The translations under genes and the position numbers were made by a program. The notes beneath the pieces are model-generated. The model made no database searches, was not told the DNA's origin, and worked only from the letters and a program-made list of their open reading frames with translations. Shown here piece by piece: positions 1-6,105 of a stretch of DNA of 6,105 nucleotides. The DNA comes from a virus (Duplodnaviria > Heunggongvirae > Uroviricota > Caudoviricetes), in the IMG/VR virus record IMGVR_UViG_3300039366_000164, positions 1 through 6,105 of that record; one strand, written 5' to 3'. Every line of letters begins with the position of its first letter. Position 1 is the first letter of the stretch.

Positions 1-2313
1 ACAGCGTTATATTCACCCATAGCATTGGCATCAACAGTTGAGTATGGTGAGACAGTTGATGGTGTTGTCCTGGAAAAAGATATCCAGCTGGTTTATGGGA
101 CCGCCAATAATACGAAAATCAATCCTGGCGGAGAACAGCATATTAAAGAATTTGGTATAAGTAGTAATACTGAAATTAACGGCGGGTATCAGTACATTGA
201 AATGAATGGCACCGCAGAATACTCAGTATTAAATGACGGTTATCAAATTGTTCAAATGGGTGGCGCGGCAAACCAGACTACCCTCAATAATGGTGTGCTA
301 CAGGTTTATGGCGCAGCGAATGATCCCACGATTAAAGGCGGGCGCTTAATCGTTGAAAAAGATGGGATTACCGTCCTTGCCGCTATCGAAAAGGGAGGAT
401 TACTGGAGGTTAAAGAGGGGGGATTAGCGATTGCGGTAGATCAGAAAGCAGGCGGAAAATTAATTGTCTCAACGAATGCGCTGGAAGTGAGTGGTACAAA
501 CAGTAAAGGTCAATTTAGTATAAAAGATGGTGTGTCAAAAAATTATGAACTGGATGATGGTTCCGGGCTCATTGTTATGGAGGACACGCAGGCCATTGAT
601 ACTATCCTTGATGAGCATGCCACTATGCAATCGCTGGGAAAGGATACTGGGACGAGAGTGCAGGCAAATGCGGTGTATGATCTCGGTCGATCAGATCAGA
701 ATGGAAGTATCACGTATTCCTCAAAAGCCATCTCTGAAAATATGGTTATCAACAATGGCCGCGCTAACGTCTGGGCTGGCACAATGGTTAACGTTTCAGT
801 CAGAGGGAATGATGGCATTCTTGAGGTCATGAAGCCGCAAATAAATTATGCACCCGCAATGTTGGTGGGTAAGGTAGTGGTTTCTGAGGGCGCTTCTTTT
901 AGAACGCATGGTGCCGTGGATACCAGCAAAGCGGACGTTTCGCTCGAAAATAGCGTATGGACCATCATTGCCGATATCACTACGACGAACCAAAACACCC
1001 TCCTCAACTTAGCCAACCTTGCGATGTCTGACGCAAATGTGATTATGATGGATGAGCCAGTGACTCGTTCATCAGTGACGGCAAGTGCGGAAAATTTCAT
1101 TACGTTGACCACCAATACCCTGTCGGGAAACGGCAATTTTTATATGCGTACCGATATGGCTAATCATCAGAGCGATCAGCTCAACGTCACCGGTCAGGCA
1201 ACAGGTGATTTCAAAATATTCGTGACGGACACCGGTGCCAGCCCGGCAGCAGGAGATAGCCTTACACTGGTAACAACGGGCGGCGGTGATGCTGCATTTA
1301 CGTTGGGCAATGCTGGAGGCGTTGTTGATATCGGTACGTATGAATATACCTTGCTGGATAATGGCAACCATAGCTGGAGTTTGGCAGAGAATCGCGCGCA
1401 AATTACCCCTTCAACCACTGATGTGCTGAATATGGCGGCCGCACAACCGCTGGTATTTGATGCAGAACTGGACACCGTGCGTGAGCGTCTTGGTAGCGTA
1501 AAAGGCGTTAGTTACGATACGGCGATGTGGAGTTCGGCAATTAACACCCGCAACAACGTGACCACTGATGCGGGAGCTGGTTTTGAGCAAACATTGACGG
1601 GCCTGACGCTCGGTATCGATAGCCGTTTCTCCCGTGAAGAAAGCAGTACAATTCGCGGCTTGTTCTTTGGTTACTCTCATTCTGATATTGGTTTTGATCG
1701 CGGCGGAAAAGGTAATATCGATAGCTATACCCTGGGGGCTTATGCCGGTTGGGAGCATCAGAACGGTGCCTATGTTGATGGGGTGGTGAAAGTTGACCGT
1801 TTTGCCAACACCATCCATGGCAAGATGAGTAATGGGGCAACAGCGTTTGGCGATTACAATAGTAACGGCGCGGGTGCTCATGTTGAGAGCGGGTTCCGTT
1901 GGGTTGACGGATTGTGGAGTGTTAGACCCTATCTGGCCTTTACCGGCTTTACCACAGATGGTCAGGACTACACGTTATCAAACGGCATGCGCGCTGATGT
2001 GGGAAATACCCGGATATTACGCGCTGAAGCGGGAACGGCGGTAAGCTATCACATGGACCTGCAAAATGGTACGACGCTGGAACCCTGGCTGAAAGCCGCC
2101 GTACGTCAGGAATACGCCGATTCTAACCAGGTGAAAGTTAATGACGATGGCAAATTTAATAATGATGTGGCTGGAGCCCGTGGCGTTTATCAGGCTGGGA
2201 TAAGGTCATCGTTTACCCCGACGTTAAGCGGTCATTTGTCAGTCAGCTATGGCAATGGCGCAGGGGTAGAATCGCCGTGGAATACTCAGGCGGGTGTGGT
2301 CTGGACGTTCTGA
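1..2313 (+). CDS. yejO: AIDA-I-type autotransporter adhesin, 5'-partial (gene begins upstream of window); passenger beta-helix repeats plus C-terminal outer-membrane beta-barrel translocator domain
   Basis: Seen: frame 1 is open from base 1 to TGA at 2311-2313 (tandem TGA TAA); the TTG at 25 in the ORF track is not the real start. Translation shows Gly/Asn/Thr-rich ~20-aa repeats typical of pertactin/AIDA passengers (e.g. VYGTANNTKINPGG, VYGAANDPTIKGG), an autotransporter linker (AAQPLVFDAELDTVRERLG, near nt 1440) and a beta-barrel ending in the aromatic signature ...GVVWTF. Symbol is by synteny only: convergent tRNA-Pro about 100 bp downstream matches my recollection of the K-12 proL/yejO arrangement; not verified by alignment. 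Confidence 0.85.
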   Translation, partial: TALYSPIALASTVEYGETVDGVVLEKDIQLVYGTANNTKINPGGEQHIKEFGISSNTEINGGYQYIEMNGTAEYSVLNDGYQIVQMGGAANQTTLNNGVLQVYGAANDPTIKGGRLIVEKDGITVLAAIEKGGLLEVKEGGLAIAVDQKAGGKLIVSTNALEVSGTNSKGQFSIKDGVSKNYELDDGSGLIVMEDTQAIDTILDEHATMQSLGKDTGTRVQANAVYDLGRSDQNGSITYSSKAISENMVINNGRANVWAGTMVNVSVRGNDGILEVMKPQINYAPAMLVGKVVVSEGASFRTHGAVDTSKADVSLENSVWTIIADITTTNQNTLLNLANLAMSDANVIMMDEPVTRSSVTASAENFITLTTNTLSGNGNFYMRTDMANHQSDQLNVTGQATGDFKIFVTDTGASPAAGDSLTLVTTGGGDAAFTLGNAGGVVDIGTYEYTLLDNGNHSWSLAENRAQITPSTTDVLNMAAAQPLVFDAELDTVRERLGSVKGVSYDTAMWSSAINTRNNVTTDAGAGFEQTLTGLTLGIDSRFSREESSTIRGLFFGYSHSDIGFDRGGKGNIDSYTLGAYAGWEHQNGAYVDGVVKVDRFANTIHGKMSNGATAFGDYNSNGAGAHVESGFRWVDGLWSVRPYLAFTGFTTDGQDYTLSNGMRADVGNTRILRAEAGTAVSYHMDLQNGTTLEPWLKAAVRQEYADSNQVKVNDDGKFNNDVAGARGVYQAGIRSSFTPTLSGHLSVSYGNGAGVESPWNTQAGVVWTF

Positions 2314-2374
2314 TAACAGAAAATAAACAGGCTGTGATGTGTCACGGTCTGTTTATCGAATTAATTGCAGATAT

Positions 2375-2406
2375 AAAAAAACCAACCGTAATGGTTGGTT
2401 TTTTTT
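2375..2406. terminator. Bidirectional rho-independent terminator (A6, 7-bp stem ACCAACC/GGTTGGT, 5-nt loop, T7)
   Basis: Seen: aaaaaa-ACCAACC-gtaat-GGTTGGT-ttttttt. Perfect stem with A-run on one side and T-run on the other, so it can terminate both the plus-strand autotransporter gene and the minus-strand tRNA whose 3' end is at 2415. Confidence 0.6.
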
Positions 2407-2414
2407 GGGATTTT

Positions 2415-2462
2415 TGGTCGGCACGAGAGGATTTGAACCTCCGACCCCCGACACCCCATGTC
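2415..2462 (-). other. 3' fragment (~48 nt) of tRNA-Pro (proL-like): att core copy at a prophage/chromosome junction, not a functional tRNA
   Basis: Seen: minus strand reads GACATGGGGTGTCGGGGGTCGGAGGTTCAAATCCTCTCGTGCCGACCA, i.e. anticodon loop with GGG anticodon, variable loop, T-arm (GGAGG-TTCAAAT-CCTCT), acceptor 3' strand and CCA. Upstream of this (2463-2492) there is no U8, no D-loop GG, no D-stem, and the anticodon stem is mispaired at its outer two positions. Established knowledge: integrases targeting tRNA 3' ends leave a partial 3' copy at one prophage end. Exact left boundary of identity is uncertain by a few nt. Confidence 0.75.
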
Positions 2463-2511
2463 ACCGCGCCTGAAACGCTGGAGGCCGCGCCGTTACTGGG
2501 CTGGTGGGGTG

Positions 2512-2540
2512 TTTTACTGTATGCGCAAACAGTGTATAAT
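2512..2540 (+). promoter_or_regulatory. Candidate sigma70 promoter (-35 TTTACT, 17-bp spacer, -10 TATAAT) facing the cargo cassette
   Basis: Seen: perfect TATAAT at 2535-2540 with TTTACT at 2512-2517. A consensus TTGACA also occurs at 2657-2662 but has no convincing -10 at 16-18 bp. Sequence-pattern prediction only. Confidence 0.3.
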
Positions 2541-2702
2541 TCGCAAAATTCACGCTATATACATCAATGACTTAGGTGGTGGTTTCTCCCCATATAATTT
2601 TTTTACTTTTTGATCACAAGCCTTTTTTTTGATAAAAGTTTGCTACGGTTTCTGCCTTGACATAAGATTGAGTTGAAACCTCAGCTTGATGAGGAGGAGC
2701 AA

Positions 2703-2903
2703 ATGGCAAATAACAAACAAAGACATGTTGATGACATGACGGACTATGCTCGCATCAGAGTTGGCTCGAGGGGAGGTGCTTACATACCCTCTGAGGAAAT
2801 TGCCAATCTCCCTGAAGTCAGGGATATGCAGCAGCGAGCAGCAGCTATAGTAGGACGAGCTGCTAGAGTGCAAACTATGCAAAAAGCAAAGGAAAAGGTT
2901 TAG
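2703..2903 (+). CDS. Hypothetical small basic protein (66 aa), first gene of AT-rich cargo cassette; function unknown
   Basis: Seen: ATG at 2703 preceded by strong SD GAGGAGG (2691-2697) with 5-nt spacer; stop TAG 2901-2903. The ORF-track start at 2673 is a TTG with no SD, so I prefer 2703. Translation MANNKQRHVDDMTDYARIRVGSRGG... is Arg/Lys-rich (12 basic vs 8 acidic residues). No family recognised by eye. Confidence 0.6.
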   Translation: MANNKQRHVDDMTDYARIRVGSRGGAYIPSEEIANLPEVRDMQQRAAAIVGRAARVQTMQKAKEKV

Positions 2904-2907
2904 CTAG

Positions 2908-3759
2908 GTGATTGCTTTACTACTGATTCCCATTCTTGTTAGCGGCTACATTTTAGTAGTCGCTAATTTATATCATTACTATCAATTGCATCGATACGAT
3001 GGCCAACTTTTGTATATAAAAGTTGCAGCTCATGGAACAATGAGTGTTGTTTTTGTGATTTTAGCAGCAGTAGTAGTGAAATATTTCTTTCCTAATTTTC
3101 ACCCAATAGGAATGCTTTCAGATATTCTTAATGTCAAGAAAATAATAAATGGTAATAAAGCTGAAACATGGCTTGCTTTGATTTCATTATCATCAATTAT
3201 ATTTTCTTTAATTTGGGTGGCTTTAGTTTGGTTAAAAAATATGTTTTTTGGTTTCTTTTGTGAAAAGAAACATCATGAAAACATCTTTCATGCTAAGAAA
3301 CTTAGAGTATTAAGAAAAACAATTTCTAACTCAACTTTGGATAGTATGCTTTTAGATGCATTAGAAAGCAGTCCTAAAGAACCGATTCTAATAACCTTAT
3401 CTTCACGGAAAGTTTATGTTGGTATAGTTAATGGAATTCAAGAACCAACAGAAAGCGAAGCGCCAAATAGTTATATATCAATTTTCCCTATTATGTCAGG
3501 CTATAGAGATAAAGATACTCTTTCCATCACCTTTACGAATTCATATCCATCAGAAGTACTAGTGAGTTCAGCTATTACAATGGACTCCCAAAAAAGGCAT
3601 AAAGTGAAAAATATGGATATAATATTTCGTGCTGATGAAATTTCTCATCTTTCATGGTTCGATTTTGAACTATTTGAACAAGTCAATGATTCGATGAAGC
3701 ACGATACCATTGACTTGCGAAGTGAGACTTACTCAGGGGAAACTAGCGAAAATTTTTAG
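2908..3759 (+). CDS. Hypothetical membrane protein (283 aa): three predicted N-terminal TM helices plus ~170-aa soluble C-terminal domain; function unknown
   Basis: Seen: GTG at 2908, 4 nt after the upstream stop (translational coupling), purine-rich AAGGAAAAGG 11-20 nt upstream. Hydrophobic segments IALLLIPILVSGYILVVANLY, MSVVFVILAAVVVKYFF, WLALISLSSIIFSLIWVALVWL, then a polar C-terminal domain. Very AT-rich, AT-biased codons. Start codon uncertain (first in-frame ATG would delete TM1). No family recognised. Confidence 0.65.
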   Translation: MIALLLIPILVSGYILVVANLYHYYQLHRYDGQLLYIKVAAHGTMSVVFVILAAVVVKYFFPNFHPIGMLSDILNVKKIINGNKAETWLALISLSSIIFSLIWVALVWLKNMFFGFFCEKKHHENIFHAKKLRVLRKTISNSTLDSMLLDALESSPKEPILITLSSRKVYVGIVNGIQEPTESEAPNSYISIFPIMSGYRDKDTLSITFTNSYPSEVLVSSAITMDSQKRHKVKNMDIIFRADEISHLSWFDFELFEQVNDSMKHDTIDLRSETYSGETSENF

Positions 3760-4945
3760 TAATTTCAGGTTTCGCTAAAATTTCAGCATGAGGTACACAC
3801 ACCCAATCGATATGATTTTTAGTATAAATTTTTGTAGATTTGGCGTCGCTGTGTGCCATGCGGCCTTGCGGATCTATTCCCTGCTGATCGAAAAGGTGTG
3901 CCGCCAGCGCACGGATTTCGTGGAAGGTTGGTCTTTCTTCCATGGGTACATTGTCAAATAGTCTCAACCGATCACGAATTGCGGAAAACGATCTACTTAA
4001 ATAATCTGGGGCAACTTGTGTCGGATGTGAAACCTCTTTGCTTCGTTTAACTTGGCGTTCTGGGATCCTGTGAACGACAAACGGACTTGCCACATTATCT
4101 CTGCTATCGTCAATTATCCGTTTCAACTCTTCACCAATCGGTATTGCAACGTGTGATGCCTCTTTTTTTTGTACTTTCTGCCTATGGATATATAGTGTCC
4201 CATAAATACCGTTTTTTGGCTGTTCTAACCATACGCACCCGCAGATGCCGTCTTTAGGTTCGCGAATTGAGTAACGGATTCGCGATACTTCGAGTCGTGC
4301 ATGTGTAGTTTGCAATGCTAGATCCATTGCTGTTCTTAACCATGGTGCAGCGGCCTGCCTGATAGCTATAAAATGCTCGAGTGACAGGCGCCGTCTTTTC
4401 TTCTCATCAGTCCTACGCATTTTTTTTCTGATGGCCGGGTTATCCAGCATTAGTGATTCATCGACCGCATAAGAGAACAACTTTTTAAGAAAGCTGACCT
4501 TTCTGTTCTGCACATTTGCGGATGCGCTGGCATGATATTTGTTGATGTAGGTATTAACGTGTTCAAGTTCGATATCGCATGCCGGAACATTTACGAAAAA
4601 CGCTTTTACGCGTAGAGCGTCATTTTTCCAGTCATCTAAGGTACTCTGGGAAGGACGTTCGTCTTCGATAATCCGGGTCATTATGTGATCAACATGTTCA
4701 GCAAATGGTTTTGCTTCTCCGATAACACCGCCAGATTCTCTAATAAGATTTTCTACTGATGGAGATAATTCTGGTCTCATCCTCAGGTTGTACTCTCTGG
4801 CGATTGCAATAGCTATTGCCCTATCCTTACCTATATTTTTCTTCTTTCCGGTAATAAGTGTGAATTTATAAACACCTCGATCTTTATCAAAAATCAGATA
4901 ATCAGGAAGATGTCTGTATTCTTTTTTACGTGGCCTTGCCGCCAT
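3743..4945 (-). CDS. int: Site-specific tyrosine recombinase, lambda-family phage integrase
   Basis: Seen: 400-aa ORF. N-terminus MAARPRKKEYRHLPDYLIFDKDRGVYKFTLITGKKKNIGKDRAIAIAIA parallels the lambda Int arm-binding domain as I recall it (R-x-LP-x-L ... GK ... G-x-DR-x-IAI). C-terminus has HEIRALAAHLF and HSDAKSTKIYTKNH, consistent with the conserved His/Arg and catalytic Tyr box. Start: ATG at 4945 has SD GAGGGG 5 nt upstream; the GTG at 4951 from the ORF track overlaps the xis stop (GTGA) and is the alternative. Confidence 0.93.
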   Translation of the reverse strand: MAARPRKKEYRHLPDYLIFDKDRGVYKFTLITGKKKNIGKDRAIAIAIAREYNLRMRPELSPSVENLIRESGGVIGEAKPFAEHVDHIMTRIIEDERPSQSTLDDWKNDALRVKAFFVNVPACDIELEHVNTYINKYHASASANVQNRKVSFLKKLFSYAVDESLMLDNPAIRKKMRRTDEKKRRRLSLEHFIAIRQAAAPWLRTAMDLALQTTHARLEVSRIRYSIREPKDGICGCVWLEQPKNGIYGTLYIHRQKVQKKEASHVAIPIGEELKRIIDDSRDNVASPFVVHRIPERQVKRSKEVSHPTQVAPDYLSRSFSAIRDRLRLFDNVPMEERPTFHEIRALAAHLFDQQGIDPQGRMAHSDAKSTKIYTKNHIDWVCVPHAEILAKPEITKNFR

Positions 4946-4947
4946 GG

Positions 4948-5157
4948 TCACCCCTCGTTTATTAACTTGCGAACAGCTTGACTAACCATTGAGTCGACTC
5001 CCCATTTTTCTGTTTCGCAGACAAAAACAGAACCGTCCACGATGCGTCCCATGAGTAGACCGTTCTCGACCCAACGTTTTATCGTTCGGTTGTCAGGAAT
5101 TGAGCCATTAGAGAATTCACGGCGTCCCCATTGGCTCGCTTTCATTAGTTTTGCCAT
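4948..5157 (-). CDS. xis: Excisionase (lambda Xis-like recombination directionality factor)
   Basis: Seen: 69-aa ORF from ATG at 5157 (SD GGAG 8 nt upstream); stop TGA at 4950-4948 abuts/overlaps the int start. MAKLMKASQWGRREFSNGSIPDNRTIKRWVENG...DGSVFV resembles the lambda Xis pattern (...EW...R...TVRRWVRE...DGREYLF) from memory. The longer ORF-track version (to 5202) lacks an SD. Confidence 0.75.
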   Translation of the reverse strand: MAKLMKASQWGRREFSNGSIPDNRTIKRWVENGLLMGRIVDGSVFVCETEKWGVDSMVSQAVRKLINEG

Positions 5158-5432
5158 GGCTGTTTCTCCACTTAGCCCGCTGCACTCGGGCAGTAATATC
5201 AAATTCCAGTCCTGATAATTAATTTTGTTCTCTGGTTGCTACCTGTTTTATTGGCCTGATGCTGTCCAGGATAAGACGGCGACGCATGTTTGGCGCACCC
5301 CAACGGTAACCAGTCTTTTTGTCGTAGGATTCACAACGTCCGGCAACCCAGGACGTTTCAGTGGAATGTAATTTCATCCGCTTTTCACCGTCTCGGGTGA
5401 GATAACAATTCCTGTATGAGTTTTTATCACGC

Positions 5433-5795
5433 TCATTTCTTAGTCTCCGGTGCTTTCGGCATTACTGCCCAGTGAGTGATATTGACGTTTTCAAGGTCCC
5501 CGACCTGAAATGTCCACTGCCATTCTCCGGTTTCTTTTTGCCCCCATGTGTACCAGAGAGAACGCCAGCCAATCAGCCAGCCTTCTCCACTAGCATCAAA
5601 TAACAGAACACTTTCATTTGCTGGTGGCAGTTCAGCTGACACTGGTATTATTTTGTTTTCCAGTGCCGCACATTTAGCTTCAAGCGCGTTGAATTTACGT
5701 ACCAGGTACTCAGCATTTGTTTCGTTCACTTTCAGATCTCGCGGTACACATTTCCCGCGAAGAAACCCTTCCATTTCGAAAACATTCATGCGCAT
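5433..5795 (-). CDS. Hypothetical phage early-region protein (120 aa; Trp-rich C-terminal half)
   Basis: Seen: ATG at 5795 with SD GGAG 8 nt upstream (alternative ATG at 5789 forms an ATGA overlap with the upstream gene stop); stop TGA 5435-5433. Same strand and operon context as xis/int. No confident family assignment. Confidence 0.6.
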   Translation of the reverse strand: MRMNVFEMEGFLRGKCVPRDLKVNETNAEYLVRKFNALEAKCAALENKIIPVSAELPPANESVLLFDASGEGWLIGWRSLWYTWGQKETGEWQWTFQVGDLENVNITHWAVMPKAPETKK

Positions 5796-5992
5796 TTGCG
5801 TAACTCCGATAACTCGTTAAAACGTTCCATAAACATCCCGTAGGCCTGGCCCGGTGCCAGTGGAATCACGTTGAACATCTCTGTTGCCGGGATGCCTTCC
5901 AGTACAGGCCAGAAAGAGCCATCATCAAGCCCGAGATCGCGGCGTTCGGTTGCCAGCATGATGAGATCGGCATATTTCACAGGCGTGCTCAT
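5786..5992 (-). CDS. Hypothetical phage early-region protein (68 aa)
   Basis: Seen: ATG at 5992 overlaps the stop of the upstream minus-strand ORF (ATGA) and its own stop overlaps the next gene start, suggesting translational coupling. Weak own SD. No family recognised. Confidence 0.5.
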   Translation of the reverse strand: MSTPVKYADLIMLATERRDLGLDDGSFWPVLEGIPATEMFNVIPLAPGQAYGMFMERFNELSELRKCA

Positions 5993-6105
5993 AACCGGGG
6001 TAACCCGTATTTCTCACGGATTACAGCGTCTATTTTTTCTTCCATCCGTTTATAGTCAGGAAGAAGGCGTTTCAGTGGCGCCGGGATGTCCTGGCAATAC
6101 GCTTC
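5989..6105 (-). CDS. 3' end of a further minus-strand phage gene entering from the right edge (partial; 38 C-terminal codons visible)
   Basis: Seen: minus-strand frame open from 6105 to TGA at 5991-5989 (...EAYCQDIPAPLKRLLPDYKRMEEKIDAVIREKYGLPRL*), overlapping the ATG of the 68-aa gene. Not in the ORF track because truncated by the window edge. Confidence 0.4.
   Translation of the reverse strand, partial: EAYCQDIPAPLKRLLPDYKRMEEKIDAVIREKYGLPRL

Follow-up and report, generated by a model that had tools for sequence, protein, structure and literature searches.

RexAB of phage lambda and other prophage-encoded two-gene abortive-infection systems are expressed from the lysogen and exclude other phages. 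In RexAB, the 279-amino-acid (aa) RexA is a cytoplasmic sensor and RexB is a channel with four transmembrane (TM) helices. Here, we characterize a two-gene cassette located at positions 2703 to 3759 of a 6,105-nucleotide (nt) stretch of DNA, positions 1 to 6,105 of IMG/VR record IMGVR_UViG_3300039366_000164. This stretch, referred to as the window, consists of Escherichia coli chromosome and the left end of a heavily decayed lambdoid prophage of ca. 16 kb. The cassette encodes a small basic protein followed by a larger protein with three TM helices and a predicted cytoplasmic beta-barrel. It resembles RexAB in being carried by a prophage, in consisting of two genes and in encoding one polytopic protein, here predicted to reside in the inner membrane, but it shows no homology to RexAB, the soluble domain is built into the membrane protein and the second protein is tiny. 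We find that both genes are under purifying selection and that the pair is horizontally mobile accessory cargo of temperate phages and genomic islands. An anti-phage role of some kind is somewhat more probable than not.

By analogy, the combination of TM helices with a small cytosolic beta-barrel would parallel known membrane-disrupting defence effectors. For one of these, Cap15 of the cyclic-oligonucleotide-based antiphage signaling systems (CBASS), Duncan-Lowey and colleagues reportedly proposed in 2021 that the barrel controls helix oligomerization and membrane damage. The large protein of the cassette shares with Cap15 the arrangement of N-terminal TM helices and a compact C-terminal beta-barrel. 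In contrast to Cap15, it has no match to the PADLOC Cap families, no cyclase or other signal-generating enzyme is found in the operon and a 66-aa partner is present.

Relatives of the pair appear in two large surveys. The gpA-gpQ locus of phage P2 is a hotspot of anti-phage systems, and Table S5B of the corresponding study lists as unnamed system #57 a homologous pair with 75 occurrences in P2-like prophages of E. coli (Rousset et al. 2022, PMC9122126). As in the window, protein 1 of system #57 (253 aa) contains the motifs DGQLLY and SGYRDK and protein 2 (78 aa) contains VVGRG. Identity is only ca. 35-40%, however, the pair resides in the P2 hotspot rather than between an attachment (att) site and the integrase gene int, and Phobius predicts two TM helices in protein 1. 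System #43 of the same survey is a single-gene, more distant homolog of the large protein with 93 occurrences and is found in CFT073 (PMC9122126). Membership in two further systems of that study, 2TM+1TM+TIR and Hydrolase+3TM, was considered and rejected since the sequences are unrelated: BLASTP comparison of the large protein yielded E-values of 2.1 for the second AC1 protein (one TM helix) and 15 for the 3TM protein, and the first AC1 protein (two TM helices) was compared by reading only.

In the second survey, carried out with DefensePredictor, Table S10 lists the cluster WP_000561018.1 as a 'Predicted novel defense gene' (DeWeirdt et al., Science 2026, PMC13092281). WP_000561018.1 is the RefSeq accession of the large protein of the window. 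The cluster has a mean log-odds of 6.71 compared with a strict cutoff of 4, includes the member WP_089614730.1 and is one of 1,041 uncharacterized clusters predicted to act in defence in the E. coli pangenome; neither remote homology nor Foldseek gave a match for it (PMC13092281). Within the supplement text examined, the searched accessions did not occur elsewhere and no mechanism, fold or partner was described. The supplements of Vassallo et al. 2022 contained no match.

Architecture of the two-gene cassette

The original prediction had placed two plus-strand genes between the att core, which derives from the tRNA gene proL, and int, and this is confirmed by the list of open reading frames (ORFs) and by the sequence. 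The interval from att core to int measures 1.28 kb. The open frame of the small gene was listed as 2673-2903 on the plus strand, and the start initially assumed at 2673 had to be revised, as this position is merely the first TTG of the frame. The likely start is the ATG at 2703, which is preceded at a distance of 3 nt by the Shine-Dalgarno sequence GAGGAGGAG (2691-2699) and is the choice of the RefSeq annotation pipeline (PGAP) in 24 identical E. coli copies. With this start, the small partner gene covers 2703-2903 and encodes 66 aa. Its stop codon, TAG at 2901-2903, is separated by 4 nt from the GTG start of the large gene (2908-3759, plus strand, 283 aa), and AAGGAAAAGG is found just upstream of this GTG; both features are compatible with translational coupling. 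The large gene and int converge and overlap by 17 nt at their 3' ends (3743-3759). As had been claimed, the large gene is AT-rich relative to its neighbours. Its GC content is 32.2% overall, 0.27-0.35 in sliding windows and 24% at third codon positions (GC3), compared with 42.8% (GC3 37.5%) for int, 47% for the small gene and 48.6% for the adjacent autotransporter gene. The first reading had also recognized neither protein, and our searches assign neither to a characterized family: neither matches a family in Pfam, NCBIfam or PADLOC, the searches revealed no signal peptide, no enzyme domain and no similarity to a virulence family, and the two fall into phrog_3630 (E 7e-75) and phrog_5739 (E 2e-8), respectively, both listed without a known function.

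The membrane part of the large protein comprises residues 1-118 (2908-3261, plus strand) as judged by hydropathy, charge counts and the helices of an AlphaFold2 (AF2) model. Hydrophobic segments are located at residues 1-23, 34-65 and 85-118, with TM2 placed at ca. 39-60 and TM3 at 85-118. The juxtamembrane motif LHRYDGQLLYxK (residues 27-38) is nearly invariant, and the columns L27, G32, Q33, L35, Y36, K38 and G43 of the membrane part are invariant among 82 diverse homologs. TM3 is followed by a basic stretch and two linker helices (126-153), together encoded by 3262-3369 on the plus strand. Since the net charge over residues 111-140 is +5, the C-terminal ca. 165 residues are placed in the cytoplasm, resulting in a predicted topology of an inner-membrane protein with its N-terminus outside and its C-terminus inside. 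This agrees with the three TM helices and the soluble, cytoplasmic-side C-terminal domain proposed at the outset; the three helices are now seen in both the hydropathy profile and the AF2 model.

The cytoplasmic domain (ca. residues 155-262; 3370-3693, plus strand) is modeled as an Sm/LSm/Hfq-like beta-barrel. Based on an alignment of 82 sequences, the AF2 model (predicted local distance difference test, pLDDT, 77.7) contains three helices, two linker helices, the barrel (residues 160-250) and a further helix behind it, and ends in a disordered tail. The model conforms to the Sm fold, in which an N-terminal alpha-helix precedes a strongly bent five-stranded antiparallel beta-sheet, and Foldseek comparison with the PDB and BFVD agrees with an Sm-like barrel. 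The tail (residues 263-283; 3694-3759 including the stop, plus strand) is variable and has pLDDT values below 50. Residues K168, Y170, G172, P180, E182, S197, G198, R200 and Y213 of the barrel are invariant. Over the whole protein, conservation peaks at the first helix, at LHRYDGQLLYxK, at K168/Y170/G172 of the barrel, at E179-P180-x-E182 and at S197-G198-Y199-R200.

At the sequence level, there was no signal linking the domain to Sm families. The Sm1/Sm2 motifs were not detected, with neither Pfam LSM nor Pfam Hfq matching at E<=1, comparison of the family profile with E. coli Hfq by hhalign returned a probability of 0.4% and a profile search of PDB sequences with the large-protein family yielded chance-level matches and no Sm protein. 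We therefore regard the Sm-like designation as a fold assignment and not as family membership. The large protein further differs from Sm, LSm and Hfq proteins in that its barrel is fused to three TM helices and is mostly acidic. With a mean net charge of -3.2 and negative values in 85% of the family, the barrel core argues against a general RNA-binding surface. An acidic barrel alongside basic small partners would instead fit partner binding. The Sm fold typically assembles as hexameric or heptameric rings.

Other assignments of the large protein were considered. A reading of the barrel as a WYL domain gave scores below those of true Sm proteins and no WYL match in Pfam; WYL sensors such as BrxR, CapW and DriD are soluble helix-turn-helix (HTH) transcription factors, unlike the large protein. 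An MscS-like mini-channel, consisting of three TM helices, an Sm-like beta domain and an alpha-beta domain, was rejected as neither the fold nor an MS_channel profile matched. Apart from PHROGs of unknown function, family scans of both proteins and of their phage homologs gave a single sub-threshold match, to FPL (17.9 bits with a cutoff of 26.1), which was judged spurious.

The small protein has an isoelectric point of 10, and the small proteins of the family carry a mean charge of +3.7. Its AF2 model (pLDDT 74) shows a beta-hairpin with the turn G-x-R-G-G and then two helices, the first short and the second long. The family motif is h(R/K)VVGRGxhxI(D/P)xxE...A+xIV, in which the terminal helix ends with A-(K/R)-x-I-V; the version found in the window is ARIRVGSRGGAYIPSEEIANLPEVRDMQQRAAAIV. 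A profile search against the PDB returned weak short matches only and no solved relative. The strand-Gly-strand-Pro-helix pattern had suggested an antitoxin of the AbrB/MazE or ribbon-helix-helix (RHH) type, and this was rejected for want of support from Pfam, PDB profiles or AF2, as the modeled hairpin and helices do not form a complete RHH or AbrB domain. In NCBI and UniRef, many family members of 67-74 aa (P0159, P0166, P0171, P0173, P0179 and others), together with two shorter partial entries, bear the name 'multidrug ABC transporter ATPase'. At a length of ca. 70 aa such a name is impossible; it represents a propagated annotation error.

Co-inheritance and mobility of the pair

Compared with the Klebsiella copy (76% amino-acid identity), the large gene has a ratio of nonsynonymous to synonymous substitution rates (dN/dS) of 0.08 and the small gene one of 0.18. 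A word-indexed search found 229 relatives of the large protein, and an exhaustive profile search resulted in 2,667 representatives at 50% identity, almost all of them 240-340 aa long. These results bear on the possibility that the cassette is a meaningless decayed remnant with ORFs kept by chance, an outcome that the original prediction had set against its own reading. The prophage is indeed heavily degraded and contains pseudogenes and an IS2. The intact ORFs, the purifying selection, the residues invariant across 82 homologs and the thousands of sequence clusters nevertheless effectively refute this explanation.

The pair had been proposed to be conserved as a unit, and this holds across Proteobacteria. 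Scanning one genome per species, we found 43 loci in taxa including Enterobacterales, Pseudomonas, Vibrio, Shewanella, Legionella, Halomonas, Lautropia and Asticcacaulis. In nearly all of the ca. 35 loci examined, a motif-sharing ORF of 45-110 aa ends at most ca. 55 nt from the start of the large gene, with most spacers ranging from -1 to ca. +20 nt or the genes overlapping. Pairwise distances of the small and the large proteins are strongly correlated (Mantel r 0.87, reached by 0 of 2000 permutations). Bulk Pfam and PADLOC scans of the neighbours revealed no third gene common to the cassette neighbourhoods. Taken together, partner conservation, co-diversification and the absence of a third gene indicate an autonomous two-gene unit.

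This organization, with a small upstream gene, tight coupling and joint inheritance, is that of type II toxin-antitoxin (TA) modules. A DNA-binding antitoxin fold or a known toxin family was not detected using Pfam, NCBIfam, PDB profiles and AF2. The pair could be imagined as a pure addiction module that stabilizes the prophage or island by means of a labile small antitoxin and a stable membrane toxin, with no direct anti-phage role. The order of the genes, their coupling and their co-diversification would be explained, as would the autonomous islets found amid core genes and the persistence of the cassette in a decayed 16 kb remnant. On the other hand, the small protein lacks an RHH, HTH or AbrB domain (Pfam, PDB profile), and the placement in defence hotspots, the adjacency to the defence systems IetAS and bSEFIR described below and the DefensePredictor score point to immunity. 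Many TA modules are moreover abortive-infection systems, so that this explanation overlaps with an anti-phage one. We consider pure addiction improbable.

The window version of the pair is carried by 24 of 5,426 complete E. coli genomes, at 99.9-100% identity, and 107 genomes carry a related int region. In E. coli and Klebsiella, the pair is located between attL at proL and int. This att-int slot can hold other cargo: in strain CT282, which has an int region with ca. 91% DNA identity, a DUF2971 gene (L059:3871-4827) replaces the pair, and its product matches the PADLOC candidate PDC-S31 (E 5e-22). Further toward the chromosome junction, the CT282 slot contains two hypothetical genes and the pseudogene of a recombinase. 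Arsenophonus likewise has a DUF2971/PDC-S31 gene near a copy of the pair (L006:2191-2895). In Klebsiella pneumoniae, an extra gene encoding 225 aa with a weak match to PDC-S64 (E 6.5e-7) is inserted between the pair and int (L054:9285-9962); this gene is not found in the E. coli window.

The supposed tie to int did not hold, since the pair also resides in other slots of other elements. In Cronobacter phage phiES15, it lies between int and attP in the opposite orientation relative to int. In Salmonella phages SEN4/SEN5 and Klebsiella phage ST15-OXA48phi14.1, the pair occupies the cos-proximal gpA-gpQ locus of P2; in the latter, a bSEFIR TIR gene (E 7e-103) is the second gene downstream of it, after an intervening ORF of 69 aa. 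Other E. coli strains contain the pair in a podovirus-like prophage, where injection/tail genes lie on one side of it and a Bro-N gene on the other. In a Salmonella/Citrobacter island with a P4-type integrase and AlpA, it is convergent with, and 37 nt apart from, a complete IetAS system (IetA 1e-132, IetS 3e-270; L060:6802-10263). The pair further adjoins an integrase in Vibrio cholerae, in an element that also has TraN, is part of an AlpA islet in Serratia and forms a two-gene islet amid housekeeping genes in many Pseudomonas and other genomes. With its foreign composition, its replacement in related elements, its occurrence in several unrelated elements and a predicted promoter, the cassette behaves as hotspot cargo, in keeping with the prophage moron originally envisaged. 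Contexts of this kind are typical of defence cargo.

The att-int slots of other phages carry conversion genes such as gtr operons, and most of the listed E. coli copies are from isolates of poultry, ducks and avian pathogenic E. coli (APEC). Both observations would suit a factor for lysogenic conversion or host physiology, for example one that modulates envelope or stress functions in APEC and other E. coli. However, the Proteobacteria that carry the module live in soil, in the sea or with hosts and share no niche, and a signal peptide, an enzyme domain or a match to a virulence family was not found. As the 24 copies are 99.9-100% identical, the avian/APEC bias may also reflect clonal spread. 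A conversion factor is accordingly a very improbable explanation.

The decayed prophage around the cassette

Upstream of the cassette, a yejO-type autotransporter gene occupies positions 25-2313 of the window, and the 3' part of the tRNA-Pro gene proL comes next. The att core (2407-2463, minus strand) comprises 57 nt identical to this part of proL and represents the left prophage junction. It was defined by aligning the junction with the intact proL that strain NC19 has at the opposite end of the element, and reaches from the anticodon loop to the 3' end of proL plus 8 nt downstream. At the far end of the prophage, the intact proL adjoins yejM. ARAGORN found no tRNA and Rfam no tRNA match in the att core region. 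RefSeq/PGAP annotates a 78-nt 'tRNA-Pro' at the prophage junction (2415-2492, minus strand), which is a chimera that neither ARAGORN nor Rfam calls. Its 3' 49 nt are true proL and lie inside the 57-nt att core while its 5' part is phage DNA that retains a 7-nt acceptor-stem complement (CGGCGCG compared with CGGCACG in proL).

The non-coding leader (2464-2702, plus strand) contains a promoter-like site, conserved blocks and the Shine-Dalgarno sequence, and part of it is probably the attP arm. The promoter-like site (2513-2540) matches 10 of 12 consensus positions; the number of sites found by the promoter scan did not exceed the expectation from shuffled sequences. A TTGACA at 2657-2662 is also kept in the Klebsiella copy. 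Two blocks, CTATATACATCAA (2555-2567) and CTTGACATA (2656-2664), are conserved between E. coli and Klebsiella amid divergent sequence and may serve as arm sites for Int or as a promoter or operator of the cassette. An Rfam scan of the cassette returned sub-threshold matches only. One of these, a 'Bacillus-plasmid RNA' on the minus strand (3670-3717) inside the 3' part of the large gene, scored 26.9 bits with a gathering threshold of 31 (E 0.003) and is probably a chance match.

The int gene (3743-4951, minus strand) encodes a lambda-type tyrosine integrase with an arm-binding domain (Pfam Arm-DNA-bind_1, 5.8e-6; PGAP) and marks the att-int cargo slot. A gene at 5219-5436 (minus strand; L001:22920-23137), located between an xis-like ORF and a DUF551 gene, is frameshifted according to PGAP. 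Many pseudogenes or partial genes and one IS2 are found in the surrounding prophage while the cassette is intact; given the frameshifted and the many partial genes, the prophage is a remnant. At its far end in strain NC19 (L001:32133-34022, outside the window), a gene adjoining IS2 encodes a 629-aa DUF262 protein with a full-length match to the type IV methyl-directed restriction enzyme of PADLOC (E = 0). The decayed prophage thus retains defence-type cargo at both ends.

Putative function of the pair

We tentatively favour, at somewhat less than even confidence, an interpretation in which the cassette is an anti-phage or TA-like module with a membrane effector that is restrained by its small partner. 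As cargo of mobile genetic elements, the pair would protect the lysogen from other phages in an abortive-infection or TA-like manner. The membrane protein would be the effector. Its Sm-like domains may oligomerize and thereby gather or gate 18-21 TM helices, with the outcome being either membrane damage or a block of phage entry or development at a membrane-associated step. The small basic protein could dock on the acidic barrel and keep the effector off, until infection releases it by host-synthesis shut-off, by degrading, titrating or outpacing the partner or through a phage trigger. That the small protein is a negative regulator is about as plausible as the overall scheme and falls likewise slightly short of an even chance. 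Membrane damage gated by a ring is by itself unlikely. The defence neighbours of the pair, namely IetAS, bSEFIR and the type IV restriction enzyme, support an anti-phage role.

A homolog of the small protein found in a virulent phage may indicate which way the regulation runs. The Vequintavirinae myophage Serratia phage vB_SmaM-Kashira encodes, within a run of small early-type genes, a 63-aa protein (MARIRVTDRGGCYIPSSEIRELPEVKEMQRLAKIIV...; URC22607.1; ON287374.1 5207-5398; L069:1498-1689) that matches phrog_5739 and shares 61% identity with the core of the small protein of the window (E 3e-15). An identical 63-aa protein is encoded in a record named Acinetobacter phage ABPH49 (MH533020.1 121666-121857; L070:1516-1707). 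Neither the Kashira nor the ABPH49 genome contains a homolog of the large protein, and the pair is frequent in Serratia marcescens. A lytic phage would gain from an orphan copy if the small protein holds the membrane protein in the off state. Phage-borne antitoxin mimics act in this way in other systems. By analogy, the orphan copy fits an antitoxin-like role of the small protein and is possibly an antitoxin or inhibitor mimic that serves as a counter-defence decoy.

Superinfection exclusion without cell death has to be considered as well. P22 SieA, T4 Imm and HK97 gp15 block genome entry of incoming phages, and the pair might act likewise at the inner membrane, with the small protein as a cofactor for assembly or specificity. 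A predicted inner-membrane protein, most of which faces the cytoplasm, would be suitable, and prophages carry the pair in att-int slots and in the P2 hotspot, a locus also occupied by the classical exclusion genes old and tin. Exclusion accounts less well for the copies outside prophages, which form islets amid housekeeping genes, and for the strict small-first two-gene layout, which is more typical of TA and abortive-infection modules. Further, the orphan small protein of a virulent phage is easier to explain as an off-switch than as a cofactor. Exclusion is thus an unlikely explanation, although one we would place ahead of pure addiction.

Several points weigh against an anti-phage module with a restrained membrane effector. 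Neither system #57 nor system #43 was among the systems cloned in the P2 hotspot study, and #57 was given no name or domain (PMC9122126). The DefensePredictor assignment is a prediction, and only 45% of the transcription units tested in that survey protected overall (PMC13092281). A literature search with the accessions, the PHROG identifiers and Sm-like defence as queries retrieved no experimental characterization of the family, and no family of PADLOC-DB v2.0.0 (Abi, CBASS effectors, Rst, PD, PDC) matched the window proteins or their phage homologs at E<=1. The Sm-like barrel is assigned by fold similarity in an AF2 model whose confidence is moderate (pLDDT 77.7), and the cassette promoter is predicted by its consensus match alone. 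The orphan homolog is a single case, one protein that is identical in two phage records. In distant taxa, the neighbours of the pair are mostly housekeeping genes and not defence islands.

A more far-reaching version of the membrane-effector scheme would make the pair the founding member of a new immune class, in which a membrane-tethered Sm-fold ring, as effector or sensor, forms or gates a pore or captures a phage component at the inner membrane, the small protein restrains it and the decoy of a virulent phage counters it. This version is rather unlikely. If it were true, it would represent the first Sm fold used as a membrane immune effector and, in addition, a new defence/counter-defence pair.

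In conclusion, the pair is one among many predicted defence candidates; it is a real finding whose function we infer. New aspects are the Sm-like fold predicted on a membrane anchor, the obligate and co-diversifying micro-protein partner, the breadth of the family, the swap-slot behaviour at att-int, the link between two anonymous catalogue entries and the candidate phage decoy. Entries left 'hypothetical' by two large surveys thereby gain content, and the att-int slot of proL lambdoid prophages is marked as a swap site for defence cargo. If the proposed function is correct, the pair would constitute a widespread defence family of unusual architecture with thousands of sequence clusters across Proteobacteria, along with a counter-defence candidate in a virulent Serratia phage. 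This would have practical consequences for phage therapy directed at pair-carrying lineages of APEC, Klebsiella and Serratia.

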